Virus record (IMG/VR): IMGVR_UViG_3300021431_000094
Location: 35,915-99,914 of that record
Length of the DNA: 64,000 nt
DNA from: a virus
Lineage: Duplodnaviria; Caudoviricetes
Direction: 5' to 3' (one strand)
This document shows, piece by piece, positions 14,034 through 55,350 of this stretch. Below the pieces are notes generated by a model. The model worked only from the letters and a program-made list of their open reading frames with translations. It did not search any database and had not been told where the DNA came from. The position numbers were made by a program, and so were the translations under genes. Numbering within the stretch: the first letter of the stretch is position 1; each line of letters opens with the position of its first letter.

Positions 14034-14085
14034 AAAGGATGAACCTTTAAATGGAACTCAGAGAGGGAAGTACATTGTAATTTTG
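14034..14085 (+). promoter_or_regulatory. Capsid operon promoter: palindrome plus -7 box TAATTTTG
   Basis: aaaggatgaaccttt at 14034-14048; TAATTTTG at 14078-14085; 29-nt spacer. Confidence 0.8.
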
Positions 14086-42785: not shown

Positions 42786-43628
42786 ATGGATAAGAATTTC
42801 ATATCATTGAAGAGTGTAGCAGCAGACGTTTATAGTAAAGAGAAGATGCGCGACATGCCATTTGAAATGTTGATAAGCCTTACACTAGAACTTATGCAGA
42901 TAACTGGTTGTCCGCTTCTATTTCTTGACAAGGAAGAAGTGTTGGAAGTACATGAACACCGAGTAGAGTTGCCATGTAATTTTTATGAACTTCGACAAAT
43001 CAAGCTTGAAAGGTTATGCCATGGTGATAGAATGGCTAGTCCAATGAGGGTAATAGAGCAAACCCATACAACAGAATATGAAAAAGGAAATAATAAGGAA
43101 GCCGTTACTGTCACACGAAGGATAGGTTTCCAGGAAGTCGCTATCGTACCTCAGCATCGCCGTCCTGATAGTCCTATGTTCAAAGAGTCCACATCTACAT
43201 TTGTTGATGCCAACTTTCATCCTGGTGCCGACTTGACATATAAAGTACAAGGTAATATCATCATAACCTCCATACCGGAAGGTTTTATTCGTATTGCCTT
43301 TCGTGAAATAGCATCTGACGAAGATGGTTTTCCCATGATAGTGAATGATGCTTCTTTTCTGAGGGCGTTGAAGTCTTATATCAAATACAAATGGTATACA
43401 GATCTGTTAGACGAAGGCAAGCTCGGACAAGATGCCCATTACATATATGAAAAGGCAGAACAAGATTATTATGCCAACATATCCCAGGCAGAAAAATCAT
43501 TGCTTAACATTACGCCGGAGAAGATGCGGAATATTGCAAATATTTTGACAGACATGATGCCACGCAAGTATGAACATGCCTCCGGGTATAATGATCTGAA
43601 CAAGGAACATTCGCTCCGGGTACATTAG
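42786..43628 (+). CDS. Tail tubular/ring protein (P22 gp4-like)
   Basis: LPCNFY, YKVQGNIIITS..G.I.IA..D.DGFP.I..F.RAL..YI. Confidence 0.75.
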   Translation: MDKNFISLKSVAADVYSKEKMRDMPFEMLISLTLELMQITGCPLLFLDKEEVLEVHEHRVELPCNFYELRQIKLERLCHGDRMASPMRVIEQTHTTEYEKGNNKEAVTVTRRIGFQEVAIVPQHRRPDSPMFKESTSTFVDANFHPGADLTYKVQGNIIITSIPEGFIRIAFREIASDEDGFPMIVNDASFLRALKSYIKYKWYTDLLDEGKLGQDAHYIYEKAEQDYYANISQAEKSLLNITPEKMRNIANILTDMMPRKYEHASGYNDLNKEHSLRVH

Positions 43629-43642
43629 AAGTTTTTCATTTC

Positions 43643-43835
43643 TGTTTATATTCTGTTTACAAAGTAAGGCAACTGATTGAAATTCAGTTGCCTTTGTACC
43701 CTACGGCAGAGTCTATGTTATTTTGGATTTTTGGTATCTAATTGTATATTATGTACCTTTCTATGAGGTGATTTTAGAAAACATGGATATTTCTGGAGAT
43801 TATAGATGGTAAAAGTGTTTACATTTTTGTTTACA
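43643..43835. mobile_element. Putative attP region
   Basis: Immediately downstream of int; paired direct TGTTTAYA repeats at 43643/43654 and 43816/43828; inverted repeat 43666-43694 adjacent to a tRNA-3'-end-like CCGTAGGGTACA on the minus strand. Confidence 0.6.
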
Positions 43836-43857
43836 CAAAAGCACTCCTTTACTTAAT

Positions 43858-45072
43858 CTACAAAGAATTGAATTTTTTCATACTTTCTTCTTTCATTTTG
43901 TCGACAATCCCTAAGTAGCGTTTTAGCGTGTTGAATGATTTGTGGCCAGTCCACTTCATGAAGACCGCCGGCTGTATGTCTAAATAAAGAGCCATAGTGA
44001 TGAATGTCTTTCGGGCTACATGAAAGGTCAATGCTTCTGCTAATGTCATTTCCTTAATAATCCTTTCATTTCCTAAGAATATAGTCTTGTGTATCATTCG
44101 GTTAAGACCTGCCATCTCACCTATTGCTTTAAGGTATAAATTGGTTGATTGGTTGCTTAAAACAGGTAAAGCAAAATCACCTTTGATGTTCTTATATTTT
44201 TCCAAAATACCTTTGCTATAGTCATTTAGTTCAATTTTAAGGGAGTCATTTGTTTTTTCAGTGATGATTTCAAAATAATCCTCATGAATATTAGTTTTGC
44301 GTAATTGTTTGACATCGGAATACCTTAGTCCAGAAAAGCAGCAGAAGATAAAGACATCTCTTGTGGCTCTGTATTGAACTGGCAAATTACAGTTAGCTAC
44401 TTTTTTTATTTCGTCGGGATTTAGATAGATAGGTTCATCAAAGGCATAATGGAGTTTTGGTTGTAAAGTGAATCCTATATCAGTAGGAGTATATTTGTTT
44501 TCGAAGGCCCATTTCATAAAGCGTCTGAATTTGCGTAATATAGAATCGACCGATAAATTAGTCAATCCTTTATTTTGTAGGAAAGAAAGAAAACCAAGTA
44601 TAATGTTTTCGTCTATTTGAGCTATTGGTGTTCCTGGTCTATATTCGTGAAAATCCGTTTTGACGGTTAGAAGGTTTTTTTTAGTGTTGGGGCTCCATTG
44701 CTGCATGAGTTGTTCCTTTTGGATAAAGATGTTGAAGACCTCTTCAAAGGTTTGGCCATCATTATTCTTTTCATCCTGGTTTAGACCTAGAATTTTTCTT
44801 ATATCATCTTTAGTAGGAACTTCAAATTTCTCACCCTTCTCGTAGAAGAAATCCTGTAAGTTTTTTTTCATTTGAGTGAGCTGCCTATTGATAAATGCAG
44901 CGTCCCTCCAGTTTGGCTTGCATTGCTGTCTATTCTTATCCCACATCTTTTGTTCCACATGCCAAGGCAGATAAATCTGGAGTCTTTGATTGGCCCAGGT
45001 GAGACTAAGTGATATGCTATAACCGTCTTTCCTTTTTACAGGGTGAAGATAGTAACGTATGTTGTATTTCAT
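43858..45072 (-). CDS. int: Tyrosine integrase (Bacteroidota type)
   Basis: N-terminal arm-binding domain; SGLRYSD, KT, FHVARKTF, TGHK, KRY catalytic residues all present. Confidence 0.95.
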   Translation of the reverse strand: MKYNIRYYLHPVKRKDGYSISLSLTWANQRLQIYLPWHVEQKMWDKNRQQCKPNWRDAAFINRQLTQMKKNLQDFFYEKGEKFEVPTKDDIRKILGLNQDEKNNDGQTFEEVFNIFIQKEQLMQQWSPNTKKNLLTVKTDFHEYRPGTPIAQIDENIILGFLSFLQNKGLTNLSVDSILRKFRRFMKWAFENKYTPTDIGFTLQPKLHYAFDEPIYLNPDEIKKVANCNLPVQYRATRDVFIFCCFSGLRYSDVKQLRKTNIHEDYFEIITEKTNDSLKIELNDYSKGILEKYKNIKGDFALPVLSNQSTNLYLKAIGEMAGLNRMIHKTIFLGNERIIKEMTLAEALTFHVARKTFITMALYLDIQPAVFMKWTGHKSFNTLKRYLGIVDKMKEESMKKFNSL

Positions 45073-45079
45073 AGTTCAA

Positions 45080-45571
45080 TTATGTACCAAAAGGTTCTTC
45101 GTTCAAATTTAACAGGGAAGATTGTTCTAAGTCTTTTTTATTATATGGTTCTACATGCTGTGGGTTCATTTCTTTATAAAGAGATAGCTGTTCTTTGAGA
45201 GAGTTTATAAGTTCGTTTTTTAGCTCAGCATTCTTTTTTATAGCATCAATTAGTTCATCCTTTTGTTCAATCAATCGAATGAGTTGGGAGGAAGTCCATC
45301 CATAGTATTTATCTTTTTCGTCCTTTGGTTCAAGACCGTCGACATACATATTGCCATTACCGGTGAGCAACCATTCGATGTTGAATTCTTGGAAATGGTC
45401 ACAAACTTTATTGCACATCTTTCTCGACAGGTCCAATCTGCCGCTGCTTATCTGCCGTAAGGTAGATTCCTTGACACCGATCTCATCAGCCATTTGCTGC
45501 CAAGTCATCTTTTTGATTTCCTTTATTCTGACTAACCTTTTGCAGGCATTAATATCAATAGCTTTATTCAT
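45080..45571 (-). CDS. CI-like XRE helix-turn-helix repressor
   Basis: TWQQMADEIGVKESTL..G, NIEWLLTGNGNM; upstream of int and divergent from the lytic operon. Confidence 0.85.
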   Translation of the reverse strand: MNKAIDINACKRLVRIKEIKKMTWQQMADEIGVKESTLRQISSGRLDLSRKMCNKVCDHFQEFNIEWLLTGNGNMYVDGLEPKDEKDKYYGWTSSQLIRLIEQKDELIDAIKKNAELKNELINSLKEQLSLYKEMNPQHVEPYNKKDLEQSSLLNLNEEPFGT

Positions 45572-45741
45572 TTTTTTAAGGATTAAATTGGTTAAACATG
45601 AGTTTTAAGTCTAGCTATATTTTGTCTTTGACATTTCCTTTGTATTTTTTAACACATCAATAATACATTTTATTACAATGATTTAGGTAATTGCATAGAT
45701 TATTTAATAAACATTTTACTCCACATATCAATATTTATTTG

Positions 45742-45749
45742 TACCTTTG
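45742..45749 (+). promoter_or_regulatory. Early rightward promoter -7 box in the immunity region
   Basis: TACCTTTG(CA) in the AT-rich divergent intergenic region. Confidence 0.65.
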
Positions 45750-45853
45750 CAATATGATATAATAAATACATTTATCTATAATTTATGTATTCGAAGAGGT
45801 AAAATTATTTTATGAATATAGTATATTAAAGTATGTTTTAACTTTATTTAGAT

Positions 45854-46108
45854 ATGTTAGTAATAGAAAGTGAAGAAAAGTTTTCGGAAATCCTGAAAAA
45901 GGCAATGAAAGAAGTAGGGAGAGAAAGTAAAAACGTGAATCCGATAATAGGAGGATGGGACAATGTAATAGATTTCCTAGGCATCGATAAGCATCAGATA
46001 AAGCAGAACTACAAATCAGGCTTTTATGGTGATGCTTTACAAATACTGGGCCATTCTGTGGTACTGAATACACAAAGGCTTTGGGAAATATTAAAATCAC
46101 GTAAGTAG
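45854..46108 (+). CDS. Excisionase/Cro-like small DNA-binding protein
   Basis: First gene divergent from the repressor; I.G...V.DFLG..G.Y.DA..Q/I.G pattern. Confidence 0.6.
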   Translation: MLVIESEEKFSEILKKAMKEVGRESKNVNPIIGGWDNVIDFLGIDKHQIKQNYKSGFYGDALQILGHSVVLNTQRLWEILKSRK

Positions 46109-46111
46109 GGA

Positions 46112-46537
46112 ATGGAACCTATCATCATAGAAAAAAAGAAAGGCAGACTACTAGGTCGAAGCATTATGAAAACGTTGCTCAATGGATTGGGCGATGGTTT
46201 TTATAAGGTTACGATAAAGAAGATGCACCACAGCCGTAGTAATCAACAGAACAGATGGCTGTGGGGGCAGATATATCCGAGGATACTGCATGGCCTGATT
46301 GATGCTGGATGGGAGAACGTAACGACAGAAGAGCAGGTACATGAAATGTGTAAGGTGATGTTTGCCGGAACCGATATAGTAAATCCTAATACAGGTGAGA
46401 TTACAACAATACCTAATAGGACGAGTGAAATGGATACAGTTACTTTCAGCCTATATTGTATGCAACTAAGGATGTTTGCGAGTGATATGTTAGGGATTAC
46501 GATTCCGGAACCTAATGAAAGGCTATTGCAAGAATGA
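46112..46537 (+). CDS. NinB-like recombination protein
   Basis: RSNQQNRWLW..HE..K..TSEMD..F..Y..LGI.IP. Confidence 0.7.
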   Translation: MEPIIIEKKKGRLLGRSIMKTLLNGLGDGFYKVTIKKMHHSRSNQQNRWLWGQIYPRILHGLIDAGWENVTTEEQVHEMCKVMFAGTDIVNPNTGEITTIPNRTSEMDTVTFSLYCMQLRMFASDMLGITIPEPNERLLQE

Positions 46538-46733
46538 AAAGGTATCAGAAAGAAAGGCCAAACTAGGAACATGTTCTGATTGTGAGTATAGTACTCCCAA
46601 AGGAACAAAGAGTCTTAAAGGAGAGTTTTTCATGGGCGGTTGTGACTTTTGGACACCAGATGTTAAACACCCTAATTTTTACTTTCTAGATAAAGAATGT
46701 GAGAATGGGCATTATAAGAAGCGAAAGGATTAA
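46515..46733 (+). CDS. Small Cys-rich protein
   Basis: CSDC..GC..C. Confidence 0.55.
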   Translation: MKGYCKNEKVSERKAKLGTCSDCEYSTPKGTKSLKGEFFMGGCDFWTPDVKHPNFYFLDKECENGHYKKRKD

Positions 46734-46751
46734 TTATTAGTTTATAGTTAT

Positions 46752-46817
46752 AGGGGCTAGATCGGAAGTCATGAGCCGGTGACAAGGGTTTTTTGTCAAG
46801 TTGTTTTACCCGCCCCT
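46752..46817 (+). ncRNA. C4/CI-antisense-like three-way-junction RNA
   Basis: aggggc/gcccct, atcgg/ccggt, gacaag/tttgtc; segments complementary to downstream 46827-46835 and 46857-46863. Confidence 0.6.
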
Positions 46818-46866
46818 TTATTTAAAAACTTGACATTCGATTAATGAATAATAAAAATGACTTGAT

Positions 46867-47607
46867 ATGGAAAAAGAGTATGTAAGACTTTACAGAGAAT
46901 ACGACTGCCACAAATGGATAACTGATCCAAATACCATGGCTGTGCTTGTAAGATGTTTGTTTAACGCAAATACTAATGACACTTTTTTTGAGGGTCATCT
47001 TATATCGAAAGGAAGTTTTGCGACAAGTGTATCATTACTTTCAAAACAAACAGGTGTTAAACAAAATGCAATCAGGACAGCATTGAAACGACTAACAACT
47101 GACAAAATAATTAACATTCAACCCACAAACAGATTTACAATAATAACAGTCTGTGAATATGGATATTACAATGATTTTCCACAAACCAAATTAGAAACAA
47201 CTAACAAACAACTAACAAACAACCCCCTATTCAACTCACAAACAACTGACGAACAACCCACTCTTCAACTCATAACAGAAGAAGATAAAGAACAAGGTAT
47301 TCTAAAGAAAAAAGAAGATGCTAAAGTATTTTCTAATAAAAAAGAAAAAGGTTTTGTCAAACCAACTATTGATGAAATCCGAGATTATTGTCATCAAAGA
47401 GGGAATCACGTCGATGCAGAAAAGTTTTGGAACTATTACGAGAGCATAGGTTGGAAAGTCGGTAAAAATCCAATGAAAGATTGGAAGGCTGCAGTGAGAA
47501 CTTGGGAAAGAAAAGAAACCGATGTGAATAGAGAATCTACCCAGCTATCGTCACGCTGGGGCGAAAAAATTAATGTTGAACGCAAAGATAATTATTGGCA
47601 AGAATGA
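46867..47607 (+). CDS. Phage replication initiator (lambda O/DnaD-like)
   Basis: N-terminal winged helix (GSFATS..L..TIIT.C.Y..Y); C-terminal F.KPT.DEI..Y..FW.YY...GW..MKDWKAAVRTWE. Confidence 0.85.
   Translation: MEKEYVRLYREYDCHKWITDPNTMAVLVRCLFNANTNDTFFEGHLISKGSFATSVSLLSKQTGVKQNAIRTALKRLTTDKIINIQPTNRFTIITVCEYGYYNDFPQTKLETTNKQLTNNPLFNSQTTDEQPTLQLITEEDKEQGILKKKEDAKVFSNKKEKGFVKPTIDEIRDYCHQRGNHVDAEKFWNYYESIGWKVGKNPMKDWKAAVRTWERKETDVNRESTQLSSRWGEKINVERKDNYWQE
47195..47275 (+). repeat. Iteron array (putative origin) inside the initiator gene
   Basis: CAACnnAC-type units at 47198, 47209, 47220, 47232, 47243, 47254, 47266, followed by an A-rich tract. Confidence 0.7.
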
Positions 47608-49667
47608 TAGACAGGGAACAGATATACACTTGGTGGAAGATATTCCAGGACAATGGTGCCAAGCTTTGCGAAATACGCTGTCTTGATGGCAAAAGGTCCT
47701 ACAGTGGCTATTTTCGTTCATTAGATAACATCATCCGCGAAATAGAGCCTTTGTCGGAGCGTGACAATATGCAGATCTATTTTGTGATGAACAGCATCAA
47801 AGAAGAATGTTACGACAGACAACAGAAAGAACGGCTGATTGAGAATGCTAAAAATCAAACTTCGGACAACGATATTAATGGCCGTTCCTTCATACTGCTT
47901 GATTTTGACCCCGAACGTCCTGCCGGTATAGGTAGTACAGAAGCACAATTAGAAGCTGCTCACAAAGTAGCAAGGACAGTGTACAACTATCTTTTGGAAC
48001 AAGGACTAGGAAGTCTTATCGTATGCAAATCAGGCAATGGAATACATATATTGATACCTGTTCGAATGGCTAATACGGAAGAGAACAAAAACGTTGTGGA
48101 GCGTTTTTTAAAGACCATTGCAATGATGTTTGACACGGAAGAGGTACATTGCGATACGAAAGTGGCCAATGCAAGCCGGATTACAAAACTCTATGGTACA
48201 TATGCGAAAAAAGGAACAAACACTAAAGCGCATCCTTGGCGTTTGTCTAAGTTTTGGAAAATACCAGATGCGATAGAACCAAATTCGATAGAGTATGTAA
48301 AGAAGATAGCTGACCTTTTTCCTAACGAAAAGCCAACACCATCTAAAGAGAATAATTTCGGTAGGAGTCAATTTGACATTGTAGAATTTTTAAATAGACA
48401 CAATATAGAATACAGAACCGTTCGTATATCCGGTGGTACACGATACATACTCAAAGAATGCCCATTTGACTCGAACCATAAGGATCCAGATAGCATGGTA
48501 TTCCAACATGACAATGGCGCATTGGCATTTTTCTGCTATCACAGCTCATGTTCGTCCTATACCTGGCGAGATTTTAGGCTGCATTTTGAGCCTGATGCCT
48601 ATGACCAGAATGCTTATCGTGACTATCAGTATAAGCGACAGCATGTGATGATGAAGAGTGAAGTTAAGCCAATAGCTGAACCGATAGTAGAAGACAATGA
48701 GAAAGGCCCTATATGGTTACGAATGTCAGAAATCAAACGACCGAAGTTTGACATATCCAACTATATCCCATCTGGTGTAGAACAGATAGACAGGCTCACT
48801 GTTGGATTCCGTCGTAAGCATGTCACCGTGTGGTCAGGCTATAGGGGTTCCGCAAAGACAACCGTACTGAACATGCTCATTCTGAATGCTGCACAGAGAG
48901 GATATAAAACAGCACTTTGGACTGGCGAACTTGATGGAGAAGAAGAAAAGAACTGGCTGTACCTACAAGCAGCAGGAAAGATGTTCAACGTTCCAACAAA
49001 CGTATCAGGTTTCTACGAAACACCAGATTGGGTATGTGATAAGATAGACCCATGGATTGACAAACACATGAGAATATTCAACAACAAATATGGTAATGAC
49101 TTTAACCAAATAGTAGATAGAATACGGTTGTTGAAGAAAGAAATAGACCTCGATGTTGTGATGTTTGACAACCTAATGACATTGGATATAGACAGCCTAG
49201 ACGGAGATAAGAACGAAAGGCAGAAACGGACAATGCTCATCTTGACAGACCTAGCCAAGGAACTAGACATACACATTCATGTAGTAGCTCATCCGAACAA
49301 GTCCGGGAACTTTCTACGTATGAATAACATTTCGGGCACAGGCAATATACCAGACCTAGCGCAAAATGTTTTGATACTACATAGAGTAAATCAGGACTTC
49401 ATGATTAACTCCAAAGAATTTCTACCTAATCTGACTATACAGGAAATACTAGAATCGAAATGTACAAACTGCATAGAGATATGCAAGTGGCGTGACAAAG
49501 GATCTGCCGTAGACAACTTTATCAAACTCTATTTTGAGAAAGAGAGTAACCGGCTTAAGAATTCACTAGCTGAAAACATCCACTATAATTGGGAGGAAAG
49601 TTTGAACAAAGCAGTCCGAACAGAACCATACACAGATTTTTTTAAAGAAACTAATTGCCCGTATTAA
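47595..49667 (+). CDS. Primase-helicase fusion (AEP-like primase, Zn finger, SF4 helicase)
   Basis: LLDFD..SGNGIH; CPF..H..C.H..C; GYRGSAKTT, FDNLM, VAHPNK. Confidence 0.85.
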   Translation: MARMIDREQIYTWWKIFQDNGAKLCEIRCLDGKRSYSGYFRSLDNIIREIEPLSERDNMQIYFVMNSIKEECYDRQQKERLIENAKNQTSDNDINGRSFILLDFDPERPAGIGSTEAQLEAAHKVARTVYNYLLEQGLGSLIVCKSGNGIHILIPVRMANTEENKNVVERFLKTIAMMFDTEEVHCDTKVANASRITKLYGTYAKKGTNTKAHPWRLSKFWKIPDAIEPNSIEYVKKIADLFPNEKPTPSKENNFGRSQFDIVEFLNRHNIEYRTVRISGGTRYILKECPFDSNHKDPDSMVFQHDNGALAFFCYHSSCSSYTWRDFRLHFEPDAYDQNAYRDYQYKRQHVMMKSEVKPIAEPIVEDNEKGPIWLRMSEIKRPKFDISNYIPSGVEQIDRLTVGFRRKHVTVWSGYRGSAKTTVLNMLILNAAQRGYKTALWTGELDGEEEKNWLYLQAAGKMFNVPTNVSGFYETPDWVCDKIDPWIDKHMRIFNNKYGNDFNQIVDRIRLLKKEIDLDVVMFDNLMTLDIDSLDGDKNERQKRTMLILTDLAKELDIHIHVVAHPNKSGNFLRMNNISGTGNIPDLAQNVLILHRVNQDFMINSKEFLPNLTIQEILESKCTNCIEICKWRDKGSAVDNFIKLYFEKESNRLKNSLAENIHYNWEESLNKAVRTEPYTDFFKETNCPY

Positions 49668-49685
49668 CATTTAAAATATACAGAT

Positions 49686-49889
49686 ATGAATCACGACATA
49701 AAACATTGCAATGGAGAAAACTGTCCTGTAAGAGAGACCTGCCATAGATATGTGGCACACGTTGATCTAATCGAACCAGCCAAAGTAAACGAACCAATCA
49801 GTGGTTTTCAGTCCTATTTAAATGCATCAACATGCATCAGTGAAGATCTTAAGATGTACTGGGGAGAGAATTATCAAATTAAGTGCTAG
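49686..49889 (+). CDS. Small Cys-rich protein
   Basis: DI.HC.G..CP.RETC.RY. Confidence 0.65.
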   Translation: MNHDIKHCNGENCPVRETCHRYVAHVDLIEPAKVNEPISGFQSYLNASTCISEDLKMYWGENYQIKC

Positions 49890-49895
49890 GGTGTC

Positions 49896-50093
49896 ATGGG
49901 TAAGCAATACACACTTTTTGATATAGCCGAAATAGAAATAAGGCCTTGTTGTGGAAATTGTGAAAATTACTCCTGGGTTAAATATTTTGGTGGTAGACAC
50001 CAAGAGTGCAGCCGAGTGCTGAACAGAGCCCACCGGCCATACAGACCCAAAGCCAGTGGAGTAATATGCCCCTATTATAAACGAAAGGAATAA
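49896..50093 (+). CDS. Small Cys-rich protein
   Basis: CCGNC..C..CPYY. Confidence 0.6.
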   Translation: MGKQYTLFDIAEIEIRPCCGNCENYSWVKYFGGRHQECSRVLNRAHRPYRPKASGVICPYYKRKE

Positions 50094-52638: not shown

Positions 52639-52683
52639 TTACATTTAATCAACCTAATGTTTAATAATTAAAAAAGTAAAGAC

Positions 52684-53154
52684 ATGGCAGAAGAGAACAT
52701 GCACAACGGATTAAGCCCTTACGAGGCACTCAAAGTGAGTAAATTGACTAGCAGACCCAGCGGTGTGGGCATTGGCGGCTTGGTAGTCGGCGTTGGAGCC
52801 GCAGTGGTTGGTGTTGGCGGATGGATATACGCCCACGGACAGGCAAAGCGAGCCCAGGAAGTAGCAGCCGCCAATAACAATGCAACTCAGAAGCAACTTG
52901 ACTTGCTCACTCAGCTGTTGAGTTCTGAGCGCAACGAGCGAATTGCCGGCGACCGTAACCTTACCATCAGTATCAACGACTCAGTCAGCGGCCAGCAGCA
53001 GGCCACCCAGTCGCAGAGTACCGTGCAGAGTGTTGAACAGAGTCTGTTCAAGGATGCCGTTATGGGCAATCTGCGCCAAGCCCCTGTTGAAGTTGTCCGT
53101 GTAAGTGGTCAGCGTCAGTGTGGTTGTGACGACGGTTGCGGCTGTAACGGCTAA
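52684..53154 (+). CDS. Membrane-anchored protein with coiled coil and Cys-rich tail
   Basis: GVGIGGLVVGVGAAVVGVGG; C-terminal CGCDDGCGCNG. Confidence 0.7.
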   Translation: MAEENMHNGLSPYEALKVSKLTSRPSGVGIGGLVVGVGAAVVGVGGWIYAHGQAKRAQEVAAANNNATQKQLDLLTQLLSSERNERIAGDRNLTISINDSVSGQQQATQSQSTVQSVEQSLFKDAVMGNLRQAPVEVVRVSGQRQCGCDDGCGCNG

Positions 53155-53164
53155 ATTCAATCAT

Positions 53165-53216
53165 TAAGGTGGGTAGGGAGAGTGTTCTGTGTACTTTAGC
53201 TTTCCCACCCACCTTA
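53165..53216 (+). promoter_or_regulatory. Intergenic hairpin (stabiliser or weak terminator)
   Basis: taaggtgggt/acccacctta with inner ggga/tccc. Confidence 0.55.
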
Positions 53217-53233
53217 TTTAAAGTACACACACA

Positions 53234-53605
53234 ATGTTATTCGATAAAAAAAAGAAGATGGCCAATTACGCGAATGCGATGCAGAATTTCCGACCGACGA
53301 GCAAGTATGCCTTAAAGCATTTTTGCCTGATAGCCACAGGTCTGGACCTGGAAGAGGCACAAAAACTCTATGCTTTCTTGTCAGAAGGATTGGAGACATT
53401 GCCAGACTTTGACCCGCTGCCGCCCACGTTTATGGATAAAACTAAGGCAACGATCGCCGAAGTGTTTGGACTTATAAAAGAGCATGAGGACGAGTTAGGT
53501 AAAGGATATGGGATACTGCAAGCATTGTTGGCTAAAAAGGGGACGGTGCTGCCTGATATAGATAGTGCTGCATTAGCAGAACCGCTGCCACCGATTAACG
53601 GATAG
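53234..53605 (+). CDS. Hypothetical protein
   Basis: ORF in the small-gene cluster. Confidence 0.65.
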   Translation: MLFDKKKKMANYANAMQNFRPTSKYALKHFCLIATGLDLEEAQKLYAFLSEGLETLPDFDPLPPTFMDKTKATIAEVFGLIKEHEDELGKGYGILQALLAKKGTVLPDIDSAALAEPLPPING

Positions 53606-53642
53606 AAGAGATAGATATAATAGAAAGGATAGATATGATAGG
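53602..53642 (+). repeat. 9-bp-period ATAGA array
   Basis: ATAGA at 53602, 53611, 53620, 53629 (ATAGG at 53638). Confidence 0.8.
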
Positions 53643-53823
53643 TGCTAAGGTGGCATTTAACGTATATGCCAAAAGTCAAGAAGAAGCCGAAGTGGCAAGT
53701 AAAGCAATAGCCGACTTCGTTGACAAGATGGCAAAACAGGGAGTGGCAGTAACGGCAGAGAAACTGACACAAGCTGTGAGAAATTGGGGGAACAATCCAT
53801 TGGTAAGAAACTATTTTAAATGA
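53635..53823 (+). CDS. Hypothetical protein
   Basis: ORF in cluster. Confidence 0.65.
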   Translation: MIGAKVAFNVYAKSQEEAEVASKAIADFVDKMAKQGVAVTAEKLTQAVRNWGNNPLVRNYFK

Positions 53824-53832
53824 CGATATAAT

Positions 53833-54057
53833 ATGGTTGAAAATACCGTGAAAAAATGTCCGCACGATTGTCTGAAATGTAGTATGGCGCAACAGATATA
53901 CTGCACATCGCAGAACACGCACGACATTGCGATGATGCTGTCTGAATGGCGTGGAATGATGTTTGGCGGAGTTGGCAAAGTAACTAATAGCACAGAAGAG
54001 GACGGTGCAGAGAATAGACCCTCAAATGAACAACCTCAAAACTATAATGAACAATGA
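53833..54057 (+). CDS. Cys-rich hypothetical protein
   Basis: CPHDCLKC...QQIYC. Confidence 0.6.
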   Translation: MVENTVKKCPHDCLKCSMAQQIYCTSQNTHDIAMMLSEWRGMMFGGVGKVTNSTEEDGAENRPSNEQPQNYNEQ

Positions 54058-54545
54058 GTTGTAACTGCAAAAAGAACGGTACCACGGAAATTGACTTTCT
54101 AACCTTGGTACCTGGTGGGACCACCACCGATGCCAACTATCAATTGGCAGTGACACATTACCTATGTGGCAACCGCAAGGTATGTGCTAACGGTAATTTT
54201 CCTGTGATGGGAGAATTGAAATACCAAGTCATGGGTACGCCGGAATCTCTAGGTAACGGTACCTATTGTTGTCAGGTGCTCTGTACTGGCACCGTGACGT
54301 ATATGCCTTACAAATCGGGCCAGAACTGTGGCTGTAATGGTTGCAATTGCCCCAAGACCGACAATGTGTATTTTATGCTGTGTGTGCCATGTGAGAGTAT
54401 GGCAGTGCCTACAATCACTGGCGGTGTTGTCGTGGCCGCGCCCACCAATCTGAGCGATTGCTGCAATGTGACCAACGCCGTTGAGCTGACTACCAGCATC
54501 AATGTGGCCACAGCCCAGACTGCAACGACAAGCAAAAAGGCATAA
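54054..54545 (+). CDS. Cys-rich beta protein
   Basis: Many Cys including SCNC, CC, CGCNGCNC. Confidence 0.7.
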   Translation: MSCNCKKNGTTEIDFLTLVPGGTTTDANYQLAVTHYLCGNRKVCANGNFPVMGELKYQVMGTPESLGNGTYCCQVLCTGTVTYMPYKSGQNCGCNGCNCPKTDNVYFMLCVPCESMAVPTITGGVVVAAPTNLSDCCNVTNAVELTTSINVATAQTATTSKKA

Positions 54546-54550
54546 AGAAG

Positions 54551-54898
54551 ATGGTGGACGTTGCGATGATAGTGTTGTCGGCAGTATTGGCCAACCACCT
54601 CGAACTGATAGAGGCGGTAGAAAAAGTTATACGCCATGAGATACCAATTGTGAACTGCAGCAAGTGCCTTACATTCTGGTCGGTTTTGGCGTATATGCTT
54701 CTAACGGGCCACGCTGTGATAGCCTGCATTGCAACGTCTTTTTTATGTGCTTGGGTAGCGACTTGGATAGAGTTGCTGCTTGGTATCATAGACCACTTTT
54801 ATTTACGAATCTATGAAAATTTTTATTCCGAAACAACCAATGCCGAAGATACCGAAGAAACGGTGTCCGAAGTGCAACAAATAGAGAAAGAACTATGA
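54551..54898 (+). CDS. Membrane protein with CxxCxxxW (DUF1360-like)
   Basis: NCSKCLTFWS flanked by hydrophobic helices. Confidence 0.6.
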   Translation: MVDVAMIVLSAVLANHLELIEAVEKVIRHEIPIVNCSKCLTFWSVLAYMLLTGHAVIACIATSFLCAWVATWIELLLGIIDHFYLRIYENFYSETTNAEDTEETVSEVQQIEKEL

Positions 54899-55350
54899 AG
54901 TATTGTGACATAATAAAGTCGTCGCCCAATAATGGCGAAAAAGGAATGTGGGCAAGTGTGGATAGAATGTCTAACTTCCTTGAAAAAGTGAAGGAGAATC
55001 ATCCCCATGAAGTGAAAAGATTTTTGAGAGAAGAGTATATAGCCATGAACGGCAAACACTTGAATGAGGGTGTGGCCCGTAAGTTGGTATCGGACATGCA
55101 CCACAGCAAGGGCAACAAGGTCTATCGTGGCGAAATGATAAGCCCAGAAGAAGCTGCATCAAAGTTTGGCAAAAAAGAAGAATGGTATTGGGATGCATAC
55201 GTTGCTGCTAATGCCATGATGCACGATTTGGCTAACACTGAATTAAGTAATAGTCAGATTCTTGATGTAGCCAATAAGTTTTTCTTCGAGGATGAAGATT
55301 TCTCGGACGAAAACAAACTATTTTGGTATTTTGAATGGTTATTGTTTTAA
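54895..55350 (+). CDS. Hypothetical helical protein
   Basis: G.HLNE..A..V..M, WDAYVA.N...HD, FF.DED..K..WYF. Confidence 0.65.
   Translation: MKYCDIIKSSPNNGEKGMWASVDRMSNFLEKVKENHPHEVKRFLREEYIAMNGKHLNEGVARKLVSDMHHSKGNKVYRGEMISPEEAASKFGKKEEWYWDAYVAANAMMHDLANTELSNSQILDVANKFFFEDEDFSDENKLFWYFEWLLF

Follow-up and report, generated by a model that had tools for sequence, protein, structure and literature searches.

We propose that the spacer in front of a phage replication initiator gene encodes an uncatalogued antisense leader RNA, made from the same strand as its target, that probably gates translation of the initiator, acting in the manner of the C4 and CI RNAs without being a member of their family. 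Very probably, the RNA is structured and has loops that can base-pair with two boxes in the leader of the initiator, one of them at the start codon; this RNA-RNA pairing probably throttles synthesis of the replication protein. The layout of the element, its complementarities and their statistics are observed in the sequence, as is the same design, written in different letters, in three related phages.

The stretch of DNA analysed here (the window, 64,000 nucleotides) makes up the right-hand 64 kb of a virus record of 99.9 kb that is 99% complete according to CheckV. The phage is temperate and crAss-like, encoding a CrAss ring protein at 42786-43628 and a lysogeny module that consists of an integrase (43858-45072, minus strand) and an HTH repressor (45080-45571, minus strand). 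On the plus strand, the repressor is followed by an 84-aa gene, a NinB-like gene, a 72-aa gene and a 133-nt spacer (46734-46866). On the 3′ side of the spacer lie the DnaD/O-like initiator and then a primase-polymerase/DnaB helicase. The PHROG matches of the initiator are to a DnaD-like helicase loader and an O-like replication initiation protein. Homologues of the initiator number more than 4,600, and three of these (P0002, P0003 and P0004) are 77%, 55% and 50% identical to the window protein.

Canonical Bacteroidota promoters (TAnnTTTG, then CA) stand before the main operons of the phage, at 14078, 20884, 31507, 31621, 35570, 40349, 45742 and 50374, which fixes the phylum of the host and indicates that the host RNA polymerase reads much of the genome. 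A TTGACA box was considered as a sigma-70 promoter and rejected, since all promoters of the phage are of the Bacteroidota type, TAnnTTTG(CA). The spacer at 46734-46866 contains no TAnnTTTG box, and a look-alike at 46738-46745 is weak, matching four of the six specified positions. As there is no promoter in the spacer and the nearest one upstream is at 45742, the element appears to be transcribed within the early rightward operon. The source and the putative target of this transcript are:

45742-45749, plus strand: canonical Bacteroidota -7 promoter box, the nearest upstream of the element and its probable transcript source.
46867-47607, plus strand: putatively regulated gene, a DnaD-like or lambda-O-like replication initiator of 246 aa, with PHROG matches.

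Inside the initiator gene, at 47195-47272, lie about 5.6 copies of a tandem 11-nt repeat, with a 34-nt period as well. These repeats sit in the Q/N/T-rich linker that joins the two domains of the initiator, and resemble the iterons of the lambda origin inside gene O, which makes them a candidate replication origin. An origin in the spacer is unlikely, because the iteron-like repeats sit within the initiator gene.

The spacer itself can be divided into a three-way junction, a U-rich tail and two target sites:

46752-46757, plus strand: 5′ strand of the closing stem P1, pairing with 46812-46817 (ensemble pairing probability 0.93).
46761-46780, plus strand: hairpin P2, with stem 46761-46765/46776-46780 and a 10-nt loop at 46766-46775 (pairing probability 0.35-0.47).
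46781-46785, plus strand: linker J23 from P2 to P3, starting with GAC, as in all four lineages that carry the element.
46786-46811, plus strand: hairpin P3, with stem 46786-46789/46808-46811 and an 18-nt loop at 46790-46807, present in the minimum-energy fold.
46812-46823, plus strand: 3′ strand of P1 and U-rich tail (46817-46823, six of seven U), terminator-like.
46824-46835, plus strand: T1, the first target of the P3 loop, with nine exact pairs (46827-46835), a mismatch and two more pairs.
46854-46867, plus strand: T2, the second target of the P3 loop, with 14 contiguous base pairs (three of them G-U) to 46794-46807.

A three-way junction in this position had been proposed from the sequence beforehand, and its closing stem holds. 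The hairpin bearing the loop that the proposal stressed is less secure, as in about 41% of the ensemble this P2 loop is taken up by a competing hairpin, and a different third arm is favoured. The layout listed here thus joins the second arm of the original prediction to the third arm of the minimum-energy fold (46786-46789/46808-46811), which displays 46790-46807 as a loop and is favoured by comparison with relatives. The P1 stem occupies the same position as P1 in the leaders of three distant homologues (L263, L347 and L142), with compensatory changes among the lineages, and a U-rich stretch follows immediately 3′ of P1 in all four. A simple terminator scan made no call at P1 and its U-tail, because the part enclosed by the stem is longer than the loop limit of the scan.

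Both complementarities on which the original prediction was built are present. The first box (46766-46772, effector E1), contained in the P2 loop, is an exact complement of 46857-46863, which lies inside T2 and ends 3 nt before the ATG at 46867. The second (46794-46802) is an exact complement of 46827-46835, extends to 12 nt with one mismatch, and forms the core of effector E2 in the P3 loop. What the prediction missed is the main pairing, 46794-46807 with 46854-46867. T2 spans -13 to +1 of the initiator start, so that this duplex reaches the A of the start codon. T1, which starts 9-10 nt after P1, and T2 form a 9-nt direct repeat differing by two transitions, and both copies still pair with the P3 loop through G-U pairs. 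Such pairing works only at the RNA level, and only on the plus strand. A weaker upstream site, GTGACTT, had also been predicted and is indeed present at 46642-46648. It is dispensable, however, since it falls in a 163-bp segment that is missing from the only close relative of the phage (L001).

These complementarities exceed chance in some tests and not in others. Taken as bare k-mers at any place in the spacer, they are at chance level: an exact inverted repeat of at least 9 nt occurs in 4.5% of spacer shuffles, 12% of the shuffles contain a 7-mer complementary to the start region, such a 7-mer is seen at 5 of the 57 genes in the window, and both the 7-mer and the 9-mer are at background frequency across the window. 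The fold is thermodynamically unremarkable, being no more stable than shuffled sequence (z +0.23 for 46745-46875, -0.82 for 46750-46826 and -0.77 in a third fold test). Duplexes between loop and target, by contrast, are above chance. The P3 loop pairs with the start region at -13.4 kcal/mol, which none of 3000 composition-keeping loop shuffles equalled, and with 46818-46845 at -11.7 kcal/mol (p 0.0013, loop shuffles). For the P2 loop and the start region the corresponding values are -7.5 kcal/mol and p 0.003-0.01; at p about 0.01, we regard this loop as a second, lineage-specific effector. A dinucleotide-keeping shuffle of the whole 66-nt junction, which is a less tailored test than the loop shuffles, gave p values of 0.007 for the start region and 0.008 for the mid leader. 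The duplex of junction and start region ranks second among the 57 window genes, four of which have duplexes of -14 kcal/mol or stronger when tested in a comparable way.

On these figures, an ordinary spacer is an unlikely explanation, though one with evidence to recommend it. Under this alternative, a weak branched intrinsic terminator ends the early cro-like/ninB genes, the leader is unstructured and A/U-rich, and the complementarities are chance. It would account for the background k-mer statistics, the non-significant fold z-scores, the lack of any Rfam match and the average conservation of the spacer in L001. A chance-level reading based on k-mer counts, exact-repeat shuffles and fold z-scores was initially adopted, and was withdrawn after the loop-conditioned tests and the comparison with relatives. 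Two independent loop-target duplexes, each at p about 0.001 or less in composition-preserving shuffles, speak against an ordinary spacer, as does the recurrence of the same unusual layout, with different letters, before homologous genes of three other phages.

This recurrence emerged from about 240 loci encoding initiator homologues, which were fetched and their leaders read. Many of the homologues have no spacer upstream at all. The three that share the layout of the window (L263, L347 and L142) are distant, with 31-37% protein identity to the window initiator or to the homologue at L134. In each, a 2-3-nt linker with U as its first base joins a 6-bp P1 to P2, and a linker that opens with GAC leads on to P3, which abuts the 3′ strand of P1 directly. 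A U-rich stretch of 8-10 nt, T1, a spacer and T2 then follow, with 0-4 nt between T2 and the AUG. T1 and T2 are direct repeats complementary to a 9-11-nt P3 loop. Loop and targets differ among the three loci, yet each loop matches its own two targets, and all three stems differ in their letters while their pairing is kept. The P3 loop of the window is the homologue of this effector loop and is complementary to both T1 and T2. Indeed, in every one of the four lineages, loop shuffles support two complementarities of the P3 loop, one with the start region and one with an upstream site in the leader (p ≤0.005 each). The P2 loops of L263, L347 and L142 showed no complementarity to the leader in the same test. 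The effector in all three relatives is the loop of the third hairpin, and not the loop that the original prediction stressed.

The window element thus shares with L263, L347 and L142 the downstream gene family, the order of helices and linkers, the U-rich tail and the design in which one loop matches two targets. The distance from P1 to T1 is 8-10 nt in the four lineages, whereas the T1-T2 spacing varies from 16 to 32 nt, being 32 nt in the window and 16-21 nt in the relatives. The effector loop is also longer in the window (18 nt against 9-11), and its P2 loop is complementary to T2 and may act as a second effector, where the relatives have a conserved AGCU-type P2 loop. Further, the window element has no promoter of its own, whereas the three relatives have a canonical promoter directly upstream that puts the transcript start at the first base of P1. 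In these relatives, the succession of promoter, junction and U-tract consequently looks like a discrete small-RNA unit.

A larger set of initiator homologues is preceded by a simpler version of the same arrangement:

L198-L203, L211, L216-L221, L223-L224, L226, L228, L236-L237, L239 and L302: simpler leaders, ending at an ATG near position 601 (501 in L302).

These leaders resemble the window element in the gene family downstream and in the design of loop and site. They comprise a Bacteroidota promoter, a first site near the promoter, and a terminator-like hairpin whose loop matches this site; several have a third site that touches the ATG and is also complementary to the hairpin loop. Seven distinct sets of loop and site letters can be told apart (L198; L211/216; L200/203/218/219; L220/226; L221/223/224/228; L236; and L237/239), and L302 is a further case. 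A class of leaders built on loops and matching sites before initiator homologues is real. Family-wide enrichment of exact matches gave p 0.09-0.3 even for clearly covarying leaders, which marks it as a test without power, and MAFFT misaligned the start-codon site of the simpler leaders. In Rfam 15, none of the families matches any of eleven related leaders, whether the cut-off is the gathering score or an E value of 10.

A covariance model built from L263, L347 and L142 alone, with the window sequence left out, finds its best match in 44000-50000 at 46750-46823. The match is full length (9.2 bits, E 0.13 for 12 kb) and aligns P1, the GACA linker and P3, with four non-standard pairs flagged. 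Across the whole window the same match ranks only fourth (E 1.4) and is not significant, a point in favour of an ordinary spacer; the matches that outrank it are short plain terminators that mimic P1 and its tail. The evidence from the model counts as support only because this location had been predicted beforehand. L001 falls below E 0.6 with this three-relative model.

Comparison within the lineage relies on one close relative, L001 (contig G002), and true covariation is absent at this level. Searches for closer relatives of the spacer in phage records (DNA and protein) and in IMG/VR (protein, alignment and three DNA patterns) returned only L001, and metagenome contigs and GTDB genomes added none. 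The sole new match to a DNA pattern, L361, was dismissed as a chance match. L001 has 94% DNA identity to the window phage, and its spacer is 96.2% identical, which is ordinary for spacers of this phage pair (85-100%). None of the five differences in the spacer lies in a stem: three are in linkers, one adds a U to the U-run of the loop, and one is at 46802. The last converts a G-U pair into G-C in the duplex of loop and T2 (-13.2 to -16.0 kcal/mol) and breaks the terminal pair of the duplex of loop and T1 (-11.7 to -10.4 kcal/mol).

L001 also lacks three segments of the window phage: 43701-45296, with the integrase and the C-terminal two thirds of the repressor gene; 46551-46713, with the 72-aa gene; and 52674-55339, with a cluster of small proteins at 52.7-55.3 kb. 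Two crAss-like phages that are otherwise nearly identical thus differ by an indel of the lysogeny module.

Sites that are repeated and vary in concert from phage to phage could also be protein operators. Three related 9-bp boxes, two direct and one inverted, might be bound as DNA by a phage protein, such as the initiator itself in autoregulation or a repressor, and would differ between phages as the specificity of the protein differs. The centre-to-centre spacings of 32-33 bp, about three helical turns, would suit such an element, and the left box overlaps a 7-8-nt word common to the 11-nt tandem repeats within the gene, although this word is one base out of register. We nevertheless judge a DNA-level element improbable. 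The inverted copy always lies in the loop of a hairpin with covarying stems, and the pairing extends through G-U pairs, which are mismatches at the DNA level. Further, an RNA unit agrees with the U-rich tail and with the promoter of the relatives, from which transcripts begin at the first base of P1.

As an RNA, the element finds its closest parallels among regulators of other phages. In P1 and P7, the C4 effector is made from the same strand and transcript as its target, and acts through short complementary boxes, one of which lies at the translation start of the downstream gene. The element had been predicted to be of the C4/CI type, and as regards its layout this was apt: the effector is encoded on the strand and transcript of its targets, and its short boxes find their two complements in the leader downstream, one of them at the start codon. 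Membership of the C4 family (RF01695) is another matter. The window element has no similarity in sequence or structure to C4, being a three-way junction with a terminator-like end instead of a tRNA-like RNase P substrate; its target is a replication initiator and not the icd/ant operon; and its host belongs to the Bacteroidota, in which translation starts without a Shine-Dalgarno sequence.

In the satellite phage P4, the leader is the source of the CI RNA, which shuts off the replication genes by pairing with two complementary sites (PMC4825925). The parallel with the pairing of P4 seqB to seqA and seqC is close, with one effector, two target sites in the same untranslated leader, and replication genes as the controlled cargo. 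Unlike the window element, P4 has targets that flank the effector, and the outcome is premature termination of transcription. In the window, both targets follow the terminator-like stem, and control at the level of translation is suggested by the position of the second, over the start codon. The window element and P4 CI showed no detectable homology. A third comparison is with IsrK of the Gifsy-1 prophage, a promoter-proximal structured RNA that ends at a terminator, with read-through giving the mRNA, and in which the long form can be a trans target of the short one (PMC4825925). The window element would share this arrangement of a structured RNA with a terminator-like end and a read-through mRNA. 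IsrK differs in that it activates the translation of its target; structurally, it is grouped with the enterobacterial C4/seqA RNAs.

A true, RNase P-processed homologue of the P1/P7 C4 and P4 CI family would have similar logic and size and would likewise sit upstream of replication genes, but we find this origin scarcely credible. The covariance search proposed as a check found RF01695 neither in the spacer nor anywhere in the 99.9-kb genome, with E values up to 10 admitted. ARAGORN reported no tRNA-like feature at the element, and no CCA-type 3′ end follows P1. More broadly, no Rfam family matched at its gathering score in the window, and none at E up to 10 in 46300-47100.

We infer that the antisense leader RNA folds in the cell, is released by termination or processing, acts in cis or in trans, and represses the initiator. 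In this model, the spacer at 46734-46866 would encode a cis-encoded, plus-strand regulatory RNA, a GC-closed three-way junction with a U-rich, terminator-like tail, whose P3 loop (46790-46807) could pair with either T1 or T2 in the same leader. The P2 loop may add a second contact with T2 in this phage, which would reproduce the two-box geometry of the original prediction. Bacteroidota ribosomes rely on an unstructured A-rich region, not on a Shine-Dalgarno sequence, so that a loop laid over -13 to +1 should block initiation. Pairing at T2 would hide the A-rich landing site of the ribosome, and less replication initiator would be made.

T1 may serve as a built-in decoy, occupying the loop in cis on the full-length transcript. 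The constancy of the distance from P1 to T1, while that between T1 and T2 varies, suggests such pairing in cis. A junction RNA that stopped at the U-tract, or was cut out, would lack T1; its loop would be free and could bind T2 of other transcripts. Output of the initiator might then fall as copies of the element accumulate, a dosage-dependent repression like that of plasmid antisense control, P1 C4 and P4 CI. Having no promoter of its own, the window element would be the 3′ end of an early transcript or a processed piece of it.

Other start regions of the phage also carry inverted repeats. Exact inverted repeats of 10-14 nt lie over the start regions of four other genes (20912, 40377, 50403 and 53234). 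In three of the four, the left arm overlaps the -7 promoter box, so that the hairpin could form only on read-through transcripts. At 53155-53233 lies a strong GC hairpin whose loop is 23 nt long. The tail that follows it resembles the one after P1, and an 11-nt stretch of the loop is complementary to the bases just 5′ of the next ATG; this may be another loop-to-start design in the same phage.

RNA control of phage replication genes is textbook knowledge for P1, P4 and enterobacterial plasmids. We know of nothing comparable that has been catalogued for phages of Bacteroidota, which are the dominant phage hosts of the gut. As these hosts start translation without a Shine-Dalgarno sequence, a loop placed over the A-rich start region is a plausible off switch. 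We tentatively suggest, as a possibility somewhat short of an even chance, that in Bacteroidota phages, including a temperate crAss-like one, the output of the replication initiator is set by same-strand antisense leader RNAs of an undescribed family, in which the loop of a three-way junction is 'programmed' to its own decoy and start-codon sites. As the loop letters vary from phage to phage, such an RNA would double as a phage-specific lock on replication, serving copy control or the exclusion of close relatives. Such a family of RNAs with exchangeable loops would offer a handle on replication dosing or the lysogeny choice in crAss-like and other gut phages, natural orthogonal RNA regulators for Bacteroides genetics, and an annotation marker for replication modules.
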